Source of the DNA: an uncultured Solirubrobacterales bacterium
GTDB taxonomy: Bacteria > Actinomycetota > Thermoleophilia > Solirubrobacterales > 70-9
Reading direction: 5' to 3'
Assembly: GCA_963745915.1 (NCBI GenBank)
Contig: CAVUZA010000001.1
Location: 14,622 to 78,621 of the forward strand
DNA length: 64,000 nucleotides
Shown here piece by piece: positions 19,878 through 27,016 of this stretch; the stretch's first letter is position 1; the number at the start of each line of letters is the position of its first letter. The notes beneath the pieces are model-generated. The model was not told where the DNA came from and did not search any database. It worked only from the letters and a program-made list of their open reading frames with translations. The position numbers and the translations under genes are program-made.

Positions 19878-19898
19878 CCGAACGCCGACTCTACGGGA

Positions 19899-19946
19899 CT
19901 GACTTCCCGGTTTGGGACGAAATTGCGCCCCAAACCAGGAAGTCAG
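19899..19946. repeat. 48-nt hairpin-forming inverted repeat between the ftsY stop and the ffh start
   Basis: CTGACTTCCCGGTTTGGG / 12-nt loop / CCCAAACCAGGAAGTCAG. The 18-nt arms have one mismatch. It is AT-richer than its surroundings. Confidence 0.8.
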
Positions 19947-19949
19947 CCC

Positions 19950-20949
19950 TCAGGGGGTGAGCAGGGCGCGGGCGAAGTCGGCGGGGTCGAAGGGGCGCAG
20001 GTCCTCGAGCGTCTCGCCGGTGCCGATCAGCTTCACCGGGATGCCCAGCTCGTCGGCGATCGCCAGGCAGATGCCGCCCTTGGCGGTGCCGTCGAGCTTG
20101 GTCAGGACGACGCCGTCGACCTCGACCGCCTCGGCGAAGACGCGCGCCTGGCGCAGCCCGTTCTGGCCGGTGGTGGCGTCGACCGAGAGCAGCGTCTCGT
20201 GCGGGGCGCCGGGCAGCTGCTTGCCGATCACGCGGCGCACCTTGGCCAGCTCGTCCATCAGGTTGCCCTGGGTGTGGAGGCGGCCGGCGGTGTCGACGAT
20301 CACCACGTCGGCGCCGCGGGCGCGGGCGGCGGCGATCGCGTCGAAGGCGACCGCGCCCGGGTCGCCGCCCTCCGCGGAGCGGACCAGCTGGGCGCCGGCG
20401 CGCTCGGCCCACTCGGCCAGTCTGCTCGGCGGCGGCGGCGCGGTAGGTGTCGGCGGCGCCGAGCACCACCGAGAGGCCGAACTCGCGCGATAGGTGCCAG
20501 GCGATCTTGCCGATCGTCGTCGTCTTGCCGGTGCCGTTGACGCCGACCATCAGCAGCACCGCGGGCTCGCCGCTGAGGTCGATCGGCGCCCGGCCGCTGC
20601 CGGCCACCTCGGCGAGGATCTCGACCAGGCGCTCCTGCACGGCGTCGCCGTCGGCGGCGACCGCCCCGGACTCGACCTCGCGCTCGAGCCGCTCGACCAC
20701 CTTGGCCGTGGTCGGCGCCCCGGCGTCGGCGAGGATCAGCGCCTCCTCGAGACGCTCCCAGGTCTGCTCGTCGATGCGGTCGAAGAAGCTGGCCGAGAGC
20801 TCCTCGCTCAGAGCCTGGCGGCTCTTGGAGAGGCTCTCGCGCAGGCGGCGGAAGACGCCGCGCCGCTGCTCGCCGGGCTCAGCCTCGGCCGAGGCGTTCG
20901 CGCTCGCGCGCGAACCGAGGTCGAGTATCTCCTGCCAGGTCGTCGCCAT
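19950..20949 (-). pseudogene. ftsY: SRP receptor FtsY, split by an apparent 1-nt insertion at about 20421
   Basis: The N frame (ORF 19891..20949) is good to ...[13 protein letters not shown]...[13 protein letters not shown]. The rest ([12 protein letters not shown]...DTAGRLHTQ...[10 protein letters not shown]) is in ORF 19950..20306 and its upstream extension. Confidence 0.9.
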
Positions 20950-22396
20950 CGGACTCGGCCGGGGAGGCTACCCGGGCGGCGGCGATCAGCTCCTCGACGG
21001 CCTCCTCGAGGTAGCCCGGCAGGCGGTCGGCGTCGGGCAGCGCGGCGCGGTCGCCGAGAATGCCGAAGTTGACCCGGCCGTTGTAGCTGATGATCGCGAT
21101 CGCCAGCCCGTGGCGGCGGGCGAGGAAGCCGATCGGGTAGACGCCGGTCAGCTCGCGGCCGCGGATGTAGAAGGGGATCTGCGGCCCAGGGAAGTTGGTG
21201 ACCAGCAGGTTGAAGAGCCGGGTCGAGAAGTTGATCGCCGCCGTCGGCCCGAGCAGCAGCGGCGGGGCGAAGTCACGGAACCAGTCGTTGAGGCCCCAGA
21301 TCGCTTCCGCCCCGAGCGGCTGCTTGGAGTCCTTCAGCCCCTCCATCTCCTCGTGCACGGCGCGCAGCCGCTCGACCGGGTCGGCGATGCCGACCGGCAG
21401 CGGCCCGCGCATCGCCGTCAGTTTGTTGCCCAGCTCGCCCTGCTCGTCGATCGTGCGGATCGAGACCGGGACCAGCGCCTTCAACTCCATCCCCTCGGTG
21501 TCGACCTCGCGATCGTGCAGCCAGCGGCGCAGGGCGCCGGCGGTGGCGGTGAGGATCACGTCGTTGACGGTCGCGCCGAGCGCGTTCTTGACCTGCTTGA
21601 ACTCGGCCAGGTCGAAGCCGGCCCAGGTGAAGCAGCGCTGCGGGCCGATCTCGACGTTGAGCGGCACCTGCGGCGCCGGGCGCGCCAGGTTCCAGGTCAC
21701 CTCCCAGAGGCCGGCGATGCCGTCGGCGGCGCGGCGGCGGGCGCGGCCGGGCTGGCGCAGGGCGCGGCCCAGCCAGCGCCCCATGCGGCGCACGGTGTCC
21801 CAGACGCCGCCGAAGGCGCGGCCGAGCAGGCCGAAGCCGTTCGGCGTCGGCTGCGGCTGCCAGGGCTCCTCCTCGCCGATCGGGCCGGCCTCGGGCCCGG
21901 CGTCGAAGAGCAGGGTGCCGATGTCGACCGCGGAGAAGCCGTCGGCCATCGCGTGGTGGGTCTTGTAGACGACGGCGAAGCGGTCCTCGGCGAAGCCCTC
22001 GACCAGGACCAGCTCCCAGAGCGGCCGGCTGCGGTCCAGCGGCGGCGAGAGCACCTCGCCGACGACGTCGTGGAACTGCTCCTCGCTGCCCGGCTCCGGC
22101 AGCCTCACCCGGCGCACGTGGTTGTCGAGGTCGAAATCGTGGTCGTCGACCCAGAACGGCGTGCCCAGGCGCAGCGGCGGGAAGGCGAGGCGCTGGCGCA
22201 GGCGCGGCAGCAGGTGGACGCGGCTGCGCACGTGGGCGAGGAACTCCTCGGGGGCGGGCGGCTCGCCCTCGCAGACCAGCACCGCGCCGATCGCCATGTG
22301 CCCGTTGGACCTCTCGTTGGTCAGGAACGACGTGTCGAACGACGTCAGCCTGTCCATGTGGCGCTGGGCCATCGCGGCCCTCCTTTCGCTCCCCAC
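20879..22396 (-). CDS. Wax ester synthase/diacylglycerol acyltransferase (WS/DGAT) family
   Basis: 505 aa with the active-site motif HHAMADG. Alternative starts at 22372 and 22357. The 3' end overlaps the ftsY start by 71 nt. Confidence 0.85.
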
Positions 22397-22507: not shown

Positions 22508-24966
22508 CTAGGCCGCTTCGGCCGAGCCGGGCCGCGGCTGGGCCTCGCCGAGCGCGCTCTGAGCCTCGGGCGCCTGGGCCTCGCCCTGCTCGGCGAGGCC
22601 GGCGAATGGCGGCGGGCCCGCGGCCTCGTCCCCGGCGCCGGCGTCGCCGCCCTCCTCGGCGACTTCGCGCGGGAGCTTGCGGGAGACGACCTTGGTGATC
22701 CCGTCGCCGCCCATGCTCACCCCGTAGAGCACGTCGGCGGCGTCCATCGTCCGTTTCTGGTGGGTGACGATGACGAACTGGGCGCGGTCGGAGAAGCGCC
22801 GGATCAGCTGCAGGAAGCGGTCGATGTTGGCGTCGTCGAGGGCGGCCTCGACCTCGTCGAGGATGTAGAAGGGGCAGGGCCGGGCGAGGAAGACGGCGAA
22901 GACGAAGGCGATCGCGACCAGCGACTTCTCGCCGCCGGAGAGCAGCGAGAGCTTGCGCGTCGACTTGCCCGCCGGGGTCACCTCGATCTCGACCCCGAAC
23001 TCCTCGCGGGCCTCTTCCTCCTCCTCGTCGTCGACCTCGCCCTCGGCCGCCTCGCCCTCGGCCTCGGCCTCGGCGGCGCGCACGGCGCGCAGCGCCACCC
23101 GGCGCAGGCGGCCGCGACCACCGGGGAAGAGGTGCTCGACCATCTCCTCGAAGTTCTTCGCCGTCGCCTCGAAGGTCTGCTCGAAGGCGCGCTCGATCTC
23201 GTTGTCGATGTCGCGGATCAGCGCCTCCAGCTCGCGCATGCCGCGCTCGGTGTCCTCGCGCTGGGCCTGCAGCGCCTCGACGTGCTCGCGCGCCTCCTCG
23301 TACTCCTGCTCGGCCAGCGGGTTGACCGGGCCGATCTGGGCGCGGCGCCGCTCTAGCCGCCCGAGCCGGCGGTCGATCTCGGCCCGCTCCTCCTCGCCCA
23401 GCGCCTGCTCGGCGGGCGGGATCTCCTCGCCCAGCCGCTCGGCGATCGCCGCCAGCTCCTTGGCCGCCTCGGCGCGGCGGTCGCCGAGGTGGGCGGCCTC
23501 GACCTCGACCTCGGTGAGCCGGTCGGCGGCGGCGTTCATCGCGCTCTGCAGCTCGGCCTCGCGCTGCGAGCAGGAGCGCATCTCCTCGGCGATCTCGTCG
23601 CCGTCGTCCTCGCCGCCGACGACGCGCTGCTCGATCCGCTCGACCCGGGCCCGGATCGCGGCCTCGGCGGCGCTCGCCGCGGCCGCCGCCGAGCGCACGT
23701 CGTCGAGCAGCTCCTCGCCGGCCGCCAGGCGCTCGAGCAGCGCCTCGCGGTGGCGCTCGCCGAGCAGGCCCTCGGCCCGGCGGGCGTGGCGGGTGGCGCG
23801 CTCGGCGCCGCTGCGCACCGCGCCCAGGGCGGCCTCGCGGGCCGCCTCGGATGCCGCGGCGGAGCGGGCCTTGGCCAGCCCCTCGCCGGCGCCGGCGAGG
23901 CCGGCCTCGATCTCGCCCAGCTCCTCCTCCAGCTTGCGCGCCCGCTCGCCGGGCGCCGCCTCGCTGCCGACGTCGAGCGTCAGCGGCCCGAGCTCGGTGC
24001 GCAGCGCCTCGAGCCGCGGTGCCGATCTCGGCCTCGCGGTCGGCCAGGCCGGAGGCGCGGATCGCGACCCGCTGCTGGTCGCCGCGCAGCTTGGTCAGCA
24101 CCCCCCAGGCCTCGGTGCGCTGGCGGTCGCGGGCGGCGAAGCGCTCCTCGGCGGAGCGGCGCTGCTCGCTGACCTCGGCCAGCTGCTTCTCCAGCCGCTC
24201 GCGCTCGGCCCGGGCCTCGGCGGCCGCCTTCTCCGCCGCCGCGGCGCGGTCGGCGCCGAAGCGCAGTTCCTCGGCGACCAGCCGGCCGCGCAGGCCGAGC
24301 TCCTCGCGCTCGATCCGCGCCCCCAGCTCGGCCGCCTGGGCCTGGCGCTTGAGCGGCCGCAGCCGGGCGCGCGCCTCGCGCTCGAGGTCGAGCGCGCGGT
24401 CGAGGTTGTCGCCGGCGGCGCGCAGCTTCAGCTCCGCCCGGCGGCGGCGCTTGCGGTGCTTGCCGAGCCCGGCGGCCTCCTCGATCAGCAGGCGGCGCTC
24501 GCGCGGCTTTGAGTGGACGATCGACTCGACCCGGCCCTGGCTGATCACCGAGTGCATCTCGCGGCCGAGGTTGGTGTCGGAGAGCACCTCGGTGACGTCG
24601 ACCAGGCGGCAGCGGGCGCCGTTGAGCCGGTAGCCGCCGTCGCCGGAGCGGTCGAGCGTGCGCTGGACGGCGATCTCGGAGAGCTCGGTGGCGGCGCGCC
24701 CTTCGGAGTTGTCGATCGTCACCTCGACCTCGGCCTGGCGGCGCTGGCCGACGCCCTTGCCGCCGGCCGAGATCACGTCCTGCATCGAGGCGCCGCGGAT
24801 CGCCCCGGGGCTCTGCTCGCCGAGCGCCCAGAGCACCGCGTCGGTGATGTTCGACTTGCCCGAGCCGTTGGGGCCGACGATCACGCTGACGCCAGGGCGA
24901 GAACTCGAGCCGCTGCCGCTCGGGGAACGACTTGAACCCCTTCATCTCGATCGATCTCAGGTACAT
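22508..24966 (-). pseudogene. smc: SMC-type chromosome partition ATPase, ~818 aa when repaired; two apparent 1-nt insertions (about 24894 and about 24011-24023); no recognisable hinge
   Basis: MYLRSIEMKGFKSF..(shift)..VIVGPNGSGKSNITDA (Walker A), coiled coil, (shift), ...LSGGEKSLVAIAFVFA (signature), FYILDEVEAALD (Walker B), VIVTHQKRTM. The 2459-nt length is 2 mod 3. Confidence 0.85.
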
Positions 24967-25043
24967 GCGCTCGCTACGCCCTCGCCTTCCTCAGCCCGTA
25001 GCTTGGCAAGGCTCGCGATCGGGTCGGACGCGACCGCAGCCGC

Positions 25044-25722
25044 TCAGCCGTCCAGCCGCTTCATCGCCTGCTCCGCCGCGGCCTGCTCGGCCGCCTTCTT
25101 GCTGCGGCCCGCGCCCTCGCCGACGCGCTCGGCGTCGACCACGGCGGCGACCTCGAAGTGGCGCTGGTGGGCGGGGCCGGATTCGCTCGGTCACTTCGTA
25201 GCTGACCCGCGCCCGGCGCCGGGCGAGCATCTCCTGCAGGGCCGACTTGAAGTCGATCGTCGCTTCGGAGGCGTGCTCGATGCGCTCGGCGAAAGCGGCG
25301 GCGACCGCCGGCGCCAGCCGCTCGAAGCCGAAGGCGAGGAAGCAGGCGCCGATCAGCGCCTCGGTCGCCTCCGGCACCGGGCGCTCGCCGTCGAGCAGGA
25401 TCTGGGCCGGGATCGCGGTCTCCAGGTCGGCGGGCTCGCCGGCGCGCAGCATCTCCGGCACCCCCAGCGCGTCGCCGACCTCGGTGCAGGCGACGCCGCT
25501 GACCGCCTGGTTGTGGATCTTGGTCAGACCGCCGGCGGCGATCTCGGGGAAGCGCTCGACCAGGTCGGCGGCGACAGCCAGGGCGAGCACGCTGTCGCCG
25601 AGGTAGGCGAGGCGCTCGTAGGACTCGGCCCGGTCCTCGGTCCAGGAGGCGTGGGTGAGCGCCTGGCGGCGCAGGTCCTCGGGCAACTCCGCGATCAGCT
25701 CGGCGAGGGCGTCGACGCTCAC
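25044..25722 (-). pseudogene. rnc: Ribonuclease III, with an apparent 1-nt insertion at about 25182-25183
   Basis: Candidate GTG at 25720-25722. ALTHASW, ERLAYLGDSVLALAVA (RNase III signature), ALIGACFL. The dsRBD (SGPAHQRHFEV...GRSKKAAEQAAAEQAMKRL) continues in another frame to the TGA at 25044. The 679-nt length is 1 mod 3. Confidence 0.88.
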
Positions 25723-25968
25723 GTCGGCCGGGGCGTGCTCGAGCACGAACTCGACCGCGTCGCCGACGGTGGCGATCTTCGCCGCCTGCTCCTCGGAGAC
25801 CTTGACGCCGTAGGTGTCCTCGAGCTCCATCACCAGCTCGTAGAGGTCGAGCGAGTCGGCGTCGAGGTCCTCCTTGAAGCGGGTGCCCTCCTCGATCCGC
25901 CCGGCGTCGACCTCGAGCTCCTCGGCGAGGTGCTCGCGGACCAGGGTGAGGACTTCCTCGCGGCTCAT
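25723..25968 (-). CDS. acpP: Acyl carrier protein module with no stop codon of its own; it reads in frame into rnc
   Basis: ATG at 25968, preceded by AGGAA. MSREEVLTLVREHLAEELEVD...FKEDLDADSLDLYELVMELED (DSL phosphopantetheine Ser) ...VGDAVEFVLEH. Confidence 0.85.
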
Positions 25969-25981
25969 CGCCGGGTTCCTA

Positions 25982-27016
25982 TCACGCCGCGCCGCCGCCG
26001 TCACGCGCCTCGGCGAGCGCGCCGCGGCCGGCGCCGCCCTCGCGCAGCAGCGCCGCGGTGCGACCGACGGCGTCGACCTCGGCGCAGCGCGCGGCGAGGC
26101 GGACGGCGTTGGCGATCCCCTCGGCGCCGGAGCTGCCGTGGCCGACGACGGCGATCCCGCGCAGGCCGAGCAGGATCGCGCCGCCGGTGGAGTCCGGGTG
26201 CAGCTCGCGGCGCAGGCCGCCGAGCGCCGGGCGCAGCAGCAGGCCGCCGAGCGCGGCCAGCGGGTTGGAGCGGGCGGCGTCGCGGATCGCCCCGGTCACG
26301 CGTCTTCGCCGTGCCCTCCATCAGCTTCAGGGCGACGTTGCCGGTGAAGCCGTCGGTGACGACCACGTCGGCGGCACCGCCGGGCAGGTCGCGGCCCTCG
26401 ACGTTGCCGGCGAACTCGATGCCGGTCGCGGCGGCCAGCGCGCGTGCGCGGCGACCACCTCCTCGCGGCCCTTGCCCGCCTCCTCGCCAACCGAGAGCAG
26501 GCCGACCCGCGGGCGCTCGACCCCGAGCACCGCCTCGCTGAAGGCGGCGCCGAGGAAGGCGAACTGGACCAGGTGCTGGGCCCGCGCCTCGACGTTGGCG
26601 CCGACGTCGAGGAAGAGCACCGCCTTGCCGGGCAGCGGCAGCTGCACCGCCAGCGCCGGGCGCTGCACGCCCTTCAGCCGCCGCAGGCCGAAGGTGGCGG
26701 CGGCCATCGTCGCCCCGGTCGAGCCGGGGCTGGCCAGCGCCCGCGAGCGCCCCGCGGCGACGTCGGCAGCGGCGCGCACGACCGACGCCTCCGGCTTCGC
26801 CCGCACCGCCGCGACCGGCTCCTCCTCGTTGGCGATCCACTCCTCGGTGGGAACGACCTCGACTCCGGCAGCCCCGTCCAGGCGCAGTTCATCCGGCGGC
26901 CCGAAGACCCGCACCCCGATCCCGTCGGCCGCGGCCATCCGCGCGCCCTCGGCCAGCACACCGAACCCCTGCTCCGCCCCGAATCCGTCCAGGGCGACCG
27001 TGACGCCCTCCGGCAT
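25982..27016 (-). pseudogene. plsX: Phosphate acyltransferase PlsX, carried in three frames (apparent -1 at about 26437-26446 and +1 at about 26300)
   Basis: Frame 1 (26327..27016): MPEGVTVALDGFG...LDVGANV...[19 protein letters not shown]. Frame 2: [18 protein letters not shown]...[20 protein letters not shown]. Frame 3 (25982..26299): VTGAIRD...[19 protein letters not shown]. The total of 1035 nt is 0 mod 3. Confidence 0.88.

Follow-up and report, generated by a model that had tools for sequence, protein, structure and literature searches.

The stretch of DNA analysed here, referred to as the window (64,000 nt), stems from an uncultured Solirubrobacterales bacterium (GenBank assembly GCA_963745915.1, contig CAVUZA010000001.1), the genome of which comprises 2.64 Mb in three contigs with a completeness of 90.8%. 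On the minus strand of the window, at positions 22508-24966, lies an smc gene which encodes a short-armed orthologue of the bacterial Smc protein without a hinge domain. The hinge is held to dimerise the protein constitutively, to close the ring and to offer a site for DNA binding and possibly for DNA entry. Very probably, the gene encodes the single Smc of an Smc-ScpAB complex as it occurs in uncultured soil Solirubrobacterales, in which the hinge and the distal parts of the arms have been deleted and the tip consists of a hairpin.

The gene was delimited by reading all three frames and by a tblastn search with an intact orthologue of 825 aa (L060:5050-7524), whose residue numbers are used below for the coiled coil and the tip. 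Residues 1-24, 9-314 and 318-825 of this orthologue fall in three different frames of the window. Frame one starts at 24966 and covers codons 1-24 (MYLRSIEMKGF...). Walker A (GPNGSGKS, 24852-24875) is located in the second frame together with some 290 other residues, while the third extends from about 24015 to the stop at 22508. The ABC signature LSGGEKS (22922-22942) and the Walker B and D-loop segment FYILDEVEAALD (22835-22870), together spanning 22835-22942, and the H-loop VTHQKRTM (22745-22768) are all located in this third frame. The gene spans 2459 nt. An alignment of the DNA with eight intact orthologues revealed exactly two 1-nt insertions in the conserved part, and without these 2 nt there remain 819 codons including the stop, i.e., a protein of 818 aa, as had been deduced from the sequence alone. 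Both halves of the ATPase head are intact, since the Walker A, signature, Walker B, D-loop and H-loop motifs are present, and both are matched by the Pfam profile SMC_N. The protein shares about 85% identity with the orthologue in the C-terminal stretch of 508 residues and 92% in residues 1-24, and the nucleotide identity is about 88% (2197/2502). The G+C content of the region is 70-81%.

No hinge was found by any of the searches applied. Pfam SMC_hinge (PF06470) does not match the smc protein, and no match above the cut-off was obtained in the whole genome, so that no hinge encoded in trans was found either. For a more sensitive search, a lineage-specific hinge hidden Markov model (HMM) was built from 23 full-length actinobacterial SMC proteins, including those of the closest hinge-bearing genera, and applied at maximum sensitivity with all filters removed. 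It found nothing in 113 hinge-less proteins, 97 of them from the family of the window genome (best domain E-value 8), and the controls scored 136-158 bits. In a first sample of genomes, SMC_hinge was absent from 18 of 18 genomes of the genus and present in 10 of 12 genomes of sister families. A CxxC zinc hook was also looked for, and no cysteine was found near the tip of the protein; the only conserved cysteine of the arms, C465, is common to the hinge-bearing sisters. The statement of the sequence-only reading that the protein has normal heads and lacks a recognisable hinge is therefore borne out by Pfam, by the genome search, by the negative search for a divergent hinge with the lineage HMM and by structural models in which the region between the heads contains only helices and short loops (see below).

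Regarding its orthology, the product of smc is, judged by sequence, a true Smc of the Smc-ScpAB type. The intact orthologue reaches 616.2 bits with the NCBIfam model TIGR02168 (SMC_prok_B), which has an equivalog cut-off of 567.35; the frame-split pieces of the window alone score 298 and 283 bits. The best sequence match in the PDB is the head of Bacillus subtilis Smc (E = 3e-97). With the Rad50 models the orthologue scores 38-71 bits against cut-offs of 700-1087, and with the RecN model TIGR00634 39 bits against a cut-off of 408; its score for RecF is likewise well short of the cut-off. The gene is present in a single copy: no other TIGR02168-like gene was detected in the genome, nor was a match to MukB (PF04310) or to MksE-type proteins (DUF4194), which bears on the question of a second smc, mukB or mksB raised by the earlier reading. 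The partner genes scpA and scpB lie next to each other in this genome (G000:C2:2032429-2033635), a parB gene is present, and of 61 genomes sampled from the family, all but one encode a detected ScpA (60 of 61). An 868-aa frame with an SMC_N match (G000:C2:1218065-1220017, minus strand) was considered as a second SMC-like partner and rejected, as it represents a Rad50/SbcC-like protein with a CPVC hook. This ATPase of about 700 aa carries the zinc-hook motif CPVCGQEH in the middle of its coiled coil. Separate RecN-, RecF- and SbcC-like genes were identified in the genome.

The gene order at the locus is plsX-acpP-rnc-smc-WS/DGAT-ftsY. The rnc-smc-ftsY arrangement noticed in the sequence is therefore present as far as the two flanking genes are concerned, but smc and ftsY are not direct neighbours. 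The usual pair is split by a gene for a wax-ester synthase/acyltransferase (WS/DGAT) located downstream of smc (20879-22396, minus strand; Pfam WS_DGAT_cat, E = 1e-62).

It might be supposed that the protein has changed its job, so that it no longer forms a ring-shaped condensin and serves instead as a RecN- or Rad50/SbcC-like ATPase, for example one that repairs or tethers DNA, or as a DNA clamp made of the heads only. Such a change appears unlikely to us, although less so than the other alternatives. In its favour, the hinge is held to be necessary for constitutive dimerisation and DNA entrapment. In addition, a similar speculation was made for hinge-less SMC proteins from the ocean (Environ Microbiome 2025, PMC12153180), and NCBI names the short proteins only "AAA family ATPase". 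However, the protein is the only Smc orthologue of the genome, and apart from the WS/DGAT gene its position in the order acpP-rnc-smc-ftsY is kept. ScpA and ScpB are retained throughout the family, and the neck and the joint of the protein are conserved. The RecN-, RecF- and SbcC-like proteins are encoded by separate genes, and the zinc hook of the Rad50/SbcC type is missing.

The window copy of smc carries two frame breaks. The first +1 insertion, at about codon 24, is located in TCGCCCTGGCG (24894-24898, minus strand), where relatives have CCC-GGC or CCT-GGC in the alignment with the eight orthologues as well as in the pairwise alignment. If one base is removed, CCGG or CCWGG is obtained. 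The second +1 insertion, at about codon 315, is found in the stretch GAGATCGGCACCGCGGCTCGAG (24016-24026, minus strand), which is one base shorter in all eight relatives. The other gaps in the alignment, three in number, are in-frame and restricted to the variable tail at the C-terminus. With these and the two insertions set aside, the gene aligns with its orthologues from end to end, with no stops and no other lesions that disrupt the frame.

To place these breaks in context, the 80-kb contig was compared with the closest closed relative over about 27 genes in synteny. Five of them are split across frames, i.e., smc, ftsY and three others. Six breaks were mapped, at approximate window positions 2897, 5424, 10452, 20421, 24026 and 24898, and all are +1 insertions with respect to the closest closed relative. 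In four of the six, removal of one base regenerates GATC, CAGCTG or CCGG/CCWGG. The density of breaks on the contig is about 1 per 10 kb of coding sequence. Even the essential ftsY gene (19891-20949, minus strand) is hit by a +1 insertion, at about 20421 (CAGACTG; CAG-CT in the relative). Its Pfam SRP54 match ends at profile position 51 of 196, and the tblastn match is split across frames.

Upstream of smc, acpP and rnc form a single frame in this window only (24991-26004, minus strand), with Pfam PP-binding and Ribonuclease_3 in one open reading frame (ORF). Both genes are separate ORFs in all 58 relatives in which both motifs were found, and the fusion is probably another assembly error. A plsX-like ORF at 26001-26840 (minus strand) matches only positions 198-243 of 324 of the FA_synthesis profile and seems to be frame-broken too.

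Since each of the six mapped breaks is a +1 insertion, and most of them fall within palindromes of the GATC/CAGCTG type, they are most likely sequencing artefacts, and the pattern looks like that expected of Nanopore base-calling errors at methylated motifs. It is thus strongly supported that the two breaks in smc are single-base insertion errors of a long-read assembly and not signs of gene decay. The mid-gene frameshift, which had been read as a warning of missing sequence, turned out to be one of many +1 errors on the contig, and there is no junction at this site.

The gene could also be real in the lineage and still be a genuine pseudogene in this particular strain, with two true frameshifts. 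We consider this improbable, somewhat more so than a change of function. It is favoured by the presence of two breaks in one gene and by the background that some bacteria can do without smc when they grow slowly (PMC3919155). It is opposed by the end-to-end alignment with only two insertions and three in-frame gaps in the tail, by the high identity to the orthologue given above at both the protein and the nucleotide level, and by the like +1 insertions, mostly in methylation-type palindromes, in ftsY, plsX and three other conserved genes of the contig. Furthermore, the completeness of the genome (90.8%) is to be compared with 92-96% in near-closed relatives of one or two contigs, the comparison set being those relatives that are not badly fragmented according to marker completeness.

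The shape of the arms was predicted with AlphaFold2 for the intact orthologue (65 aligned sequences) and, in a second run, for residues 250-480 alone, in both cases as a monomer. In the full-length model, the arms reach a predicted local distance difference test score (pLDDT) of about 83-94. The model of the tip fragment has a mean pLDDT of 89 and a predicted template modelling score (pTM) of 0.58, and its helix boundaries are identical to those of the full-length model. Helices were predicted for residues 168-325, 338-366 and 373-449, separated by a break at 326-337 and a turn at 367-372. Further breaks are located at 450-456, 512-523 and 545-550, and the last helix ends at 612. Residues 168-612 consist of helices and short loops only, without strands or a globular insert. 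The coiled coil therefore measures about 445 aa rather than the 380 residues estimated before, with strands of about 199 aa on the N-terminal and 240 aa on the C-terminal side. The break at 545-550 coincides with the joint motif GPVNPLA, which is contained in IGPVNPLAEQEYEEA (23291-23335, minus strand), is retained in the C-terminal arm and is conserved in short and full-length SMC proteins.

According to these models, the tip is a plain alpha-helical hairpin formed by ARSAAASEAA (23840-23869, minus strand), with the loop at residues 367-372. It lies about 40 residues beyond the apex that had been guessed from the sequence. The segment GPLTLDVGSEAAPGE with the motif GPLTLDVG (23945-23989, minus strand) corresponds to the helix break at 326-337 in the N-terminal arm and not to the tip. 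It has a low pLDDT, precedes the tip by about 35 residues and is conserved only in the subclade g1/g14/g21/g24. The best structural neighbours of the tip fragment are Smc coiled-coil fragments (5xg2, 5nnv), and the others are generic helical hairpins, e.g., of chemoreceptors.

Selection on the gene was estimated from pairwise ratios of nonsynonymous to synonymous substitution rates (dN/dS) within the genus. The heads have ratios of 0.03-0.20, the arms of 0.13-0.32 and residues 326-405, which surround the tip, of 0.16-0.25. An acidic insert in the C-terminal head gave values of 0.45-1.4, and the C-terminal tail 0.13-0.76 (0.40-0.76 in four of five pairs). Purifying selection acts on the protein from end to end. 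The tail of about 60 aa (PPPFAGLAE...AEAA; 22511-22690, minus strand) is poorly conserved in the alignment and was modelled with low confidence (pLDDT <40). It contains the short recurring motifs PPPFAG, GLIGEQ and a terminal AEAA and does not occur in the full-length hinge-bearing sister proteins. In some species of the genus most of this tail is lost.

Across the hinge-less clade, residues 321-380 are the least conserved stretch of the arms (0.48-0.50 identity in three 20-residue blocks). The following block, 381-400, shows a conservation of 0.70. Here, the Arg-rich strand ...ARRAExLLGxRRQDSL is the best-kept sequence near the tip; it belongs to the segment GAERATRHARRAEGLLGERHRE (23744-23809, minus strand) just after the tip. 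This conserved basic strand could be a DNA-contact or an arm-arm surface.

The observations on this region also bear on the question whether a very divergent or miniaturised hinge, below the detection limit of profiles, might sit at the tip. Residues 326-405 are well conserved within the genus, are under purifying selection and include a Gly/Pro break as well as the conserved Arg-rich strand. Nevertheless, such a mini-hinge is highly unlikely: the models show nothing but helices and short loops between residues 168 and 612, the turn has only about 6 residues, the lineage-specific HMM gave no signal and the GPLTLDVG segment is missing from most genera of the clade.

The short form is not confined to the window. 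By a search with the C-terminal piece, an smc orthologue was found in 59 of 60 other species of the genus, with open frames mostly of 800-860 aa. In 26 of 29 extracted loci, the gene is intact in one frame (782-836 aa) and both head motifs are present. Of 80 public loci, 67 are intact (745-837 aa), and except for the one of 745 aa, which ends at the edge of its locus, they range from 782 to 837 aa. All these loci come from uncultured soil Solirubrobacterales and were assembled either from short Illumina reads with megahit (SMAG) or from long Nanopore reads (MFD), the latter including closed single-contig chromosomes. A search of protein databases yielded thousands of relatives, the best 120 of which all have 810-839 aa and no Pfam hinge, and the short protein spans more than 100 distinct 90%-identity clusters of 810-839 aa.

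In a genus-balanced sample of the family, 13 of the 61 genomes gave a Pfam hinge match. These belong to 9 of the 43 genera, and no match was obtained in the genomes of the other 34 genera. Counting the window genome, 48 of the 61 genomes have no hinge match (47 of 60 without it). Extraction of the gene from 12 genera, with a Walker A pattern that also admits GPNGCGKS, gave an intact gene of 770-835 aa without a hinge in each case. In two genera of the same family (g17 and g20), however, the SMC protein comprises 1064-1074 aa and has a Pfam hinge (E = 4e-10 to 1e-11), and in the sister families of the order the SMC proteins measure 1071-1103 aa and include a hinge. The short proteins group together in maximum-likelihood trees as a single clade (97-100% support). 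This clade is sister to the hinge-bearing clade of g17 and g20, and both are placed inside the SMC proteins of the Solirubrobacterales. The natural mini-SMC, one of the two explanations offered by the sequence-only reading, is supported by these intact relatives of the same short length, by the single clade and by the purifying selection along the whole protein.

A collapse of the assembly, the other explanation, by which about 1.1 kb (about 1 kb of repetitive coiled coil and hinge) would have been lost from a gene of normal length for 1080-1190 aa, can practically be dismissed in spite of the low-complexity sequence with 80% G+C and the frame break near the middle of the gene. About 60 species of the genus and 12 sequenced genera share one length and one junction, in closed single-contig chromosomes as well as in short-read megahit assemblies, and this cannot have arisen by collapse in every one of these assemblies, which were made independently and with different technologies. 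In addition, over 100 independent clusters of proteins with 810-839 aa exist, and the break itself is a 1-nt insertion and not a junction.

The missing part was mapped by a MAFFT alignment with the SMC proteins of 1071-1103 aa. Compared to these close full-length sisters, about 280 residues are absent. Residue 371 of the short form, which corresponds to residue ~378 of the long form, is the last one before the large gap; the gaps comprise 243 and 39 residues and close at about position 660-696 in the long form. The hinge of the hinge-bearing sisters occupies approximately residues 452-585 (about 135 aa). From the alignment, the loss would thus comprise the hinge and about 75 residues of each arm strand, i.e., the outer quarter, in a roughly register-matched excision. 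The distance between Walker A and the signature is 633-685 aa in the hinge-less clade versus 922-965 aa in the hinge-bearing SMC proteins of the order, with one exception (G145, short-armed and hinge-bearing, 692 aa). A junction at positions 320/785 of the TIGR02168 model was also considered; it would give very unequal arms and would agree with the apex proposed earlier. It was rejected because the HMM alignment of the coiled coil is unreliable and because MAFFT and both AlphaFold models agree on residues 367-372. The tip is accordingly the place where the hinge and the distal arms were lost. The comparison of hinge-bearing and hinge-less genera shows that the ancestor shared by most genera of the family underwent a single deletion of about 280 residues. 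The feature is old, widespread in the family and under selection.

How such a protein may act can be outlined from the parts that are retained, namely the ATPase heads, the head-proximal neck and joint, and arms of about 200 and 240 aa. Two hairpins would still form a homodimer together with one ScpA kleisin and ScpB. Loading at ParB/parS would proceed via the retained joint, and the normal ATP cycle of head engagement would be used. The dimer would be held by the kleisin bridge, by the ATP-dependent contact of the heads and by side-by-side zipping of the arms; in place of the hinge, the two tips may pack as a four-helix bundle. A tentative proposal, which we regard as possible but less probable than not, is that Smc-ScpAB can work without a dedicated dimeriser at the tip. 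In this case, the tips would not close the ring, or would do so only by weak helix-helix packing, and the kleisin/head compartment together with arm zipping would suffice. This state would have been reached repeatedly, with three or more separate hinge losses in the Actinomycetota alone, each of them extending over whole families, and the hinge would be an accessory and not the core of the SMC motor.

Several points weigh against the interpretation as a working hinge-less Smc. All members of the family of hinge-less proteins are uncultured. In B. subtilis, the hinge can be swapped for an unrelated dimeriser, whereas function of an Smc from which the dimeriser is omitted is not demonstrated by the experiments (PMC5344682). 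A specific module for dimerisation at the tip is disfavoured by the low conservation found there. The heads were poorly predicted in the full-length model because of the shallow alignment. Finally, the window copy has two breaks in one gene, and at the second of them no clear palindrome is found.

Compared to the canonical bacterial Smc (B. subtilis; TIGR02168; PDB 3zgx, 5xg3, 5nnv), the protein has the same heads, neck and joint, the same rnc/ftsY context and the same partners ScpA, ScpB and ParB. An antiparallel coiled-coil arm is predicted with high confidence, but with shorter strands. In contrast, it has no hinge and possesses an extra disordered C-terminal tail. Its arms comprise about 200-240 aa, whereas those of B. 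subtilis have about 340 aa and those of the sister Solirubrobacterales about 285-310 aa, and the total length is 770-837 aa versus 1064-1190 aa. RecN and Rad50/SbcC resemble it in their ABC-type heads, antiparallel coiled coil and a small tip instead of a globular hinge, but they belong to other orthologous groups (NCBIfam scores of 39-71 bits against cut-offs of roughly 400-1000). Rad50/SbcC has a CxxC zinc hook, which is missing here, and the partners of these proteins are Mre11/SbcD or none, not ScpAB.

Shortened Smc proteins have been constructed in B. subtilis. The hinge fold is reported to be replaceable by the Rad50 zinc hook in Smc(Zh), and Mini-Smc proteins with arms shortened to certain lengths stay functional (Burmann et al., 2017; PMC5344682). 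The same study gives a mode of 238 aa for the arm lengths of natural prokaryotic Smc proteins, which is close to the arms of about 220 aa found here. The survey was seeded on hinge alignments, so that hinge-less proteins were not detectable by it. Mini-Smc and Smc(Zh) keep a dimeriser, either hinge or zinc hook, whereas nothing recognisable replaces the hinge in the proteins analysed here.

Hinge-less SMC proteins as such have already been described. In ocean metagenomes, an abundant monophyletic cluster of "hinge-less" SMC proteins was found and assigned to Actinobacteria; these proteins have no CxxC hook and were not found beside a regular SMC in a genome screen (PMC12153180). They resemble the proteins of the clade described here in being monophyletic and in their heads of the SMC type, and the end of the coiled coil has neither hinge nor CxxC hook. 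The ocean cluster is marine and annotated as class Actinomycetes, whereas the present clade belongs to soil Thermoleophilia (Solirubrobacterales), the two being compared by description. Since the present clade nests among hinge-bearing relatives, its loss of the hinge is independent from that of the ocean cluster. Genome context, partner genes, a deletion map and sister lineages are not given in that study, and a literature search on SMC proteins of Solirubrobacterales or Thermoleophilia found nothing. Of particular interest here is the clean contrast between hinge-bearing and hinge-less genera in one family, together with the mapped deletion.

SMC proteins are commonly defined by their hinge, which is regarded as essential, and this family tests what the hinge is for. 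It represents a natural experiment, in which hinge-bearing (1064-1074 aa) and hinge-less (770-835 aa) genera have the same ScpAB/ParB partners. This opens the question whether a dimeriser at the tip is needed for loading, translocation and DNA entrapment, and also whether the short arms fit the length periodicity of about 100 aa seen experimentally. Surveys that are seeded on the hinge or rely on annotation miss hinge-less Smc proteins.

Beyond the Solirubrobacterales, hinge-less Smc appears to be common in uncultured Actinomycetota. In a phylum-level sample, three further families had no hinge match in any of their genomes (0 of 27, 0 of 30 and 0 of 3). The first of these is a high-GC actinobacterial family, represented by G257. 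Its SMC protein (L185:1222-4293, plus strand; MDP9068900.1) has 1024 aa and has lost only the hinge, while the arms are full; TIGR02168 positions 509-691 are replaced by about 19 residues, and no hinge match occurs in any of the 27 genomes. The other two are families of Ca. Humimicrobiia with hinge matches in 0 of 30 and 0 of 3 genomes. In these low-GC subsurface Actinomycetota (Ca. Hydromicrobium / Ca. Humimicrobiia; L186, L187, L188), hinge-less SMC proteins of 772 and 885 aa were identified. Like the clade described here, the proteins of the G257 family and of Ca. Humimicrobiia are Smc orthologues with intact heads and no Pfam hinge. In the SMC tree, however, both are separate from the Solirubrobacterales clade, and the tips share no motif. 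According to this tree, at least three independent hinge losses are needed within the Actinomycetota.

This count leaves out G145, a single genome from another family of the order. Its SMC protein (L161:2277-4742, minus strand) comprises 822 aa with arms of about 155 aa and keeps most of the hinge. It had been considered as a second hinge loss, but was dropped since the lineage HMM finds most of the hinge (49 bits, residues 322-438), which lowers the number of independent losses. In metagenomes, thousands of relatives of the 772-aa Humimicrobiia type were found, and these are mostly annotated as "AAA family ATPase".

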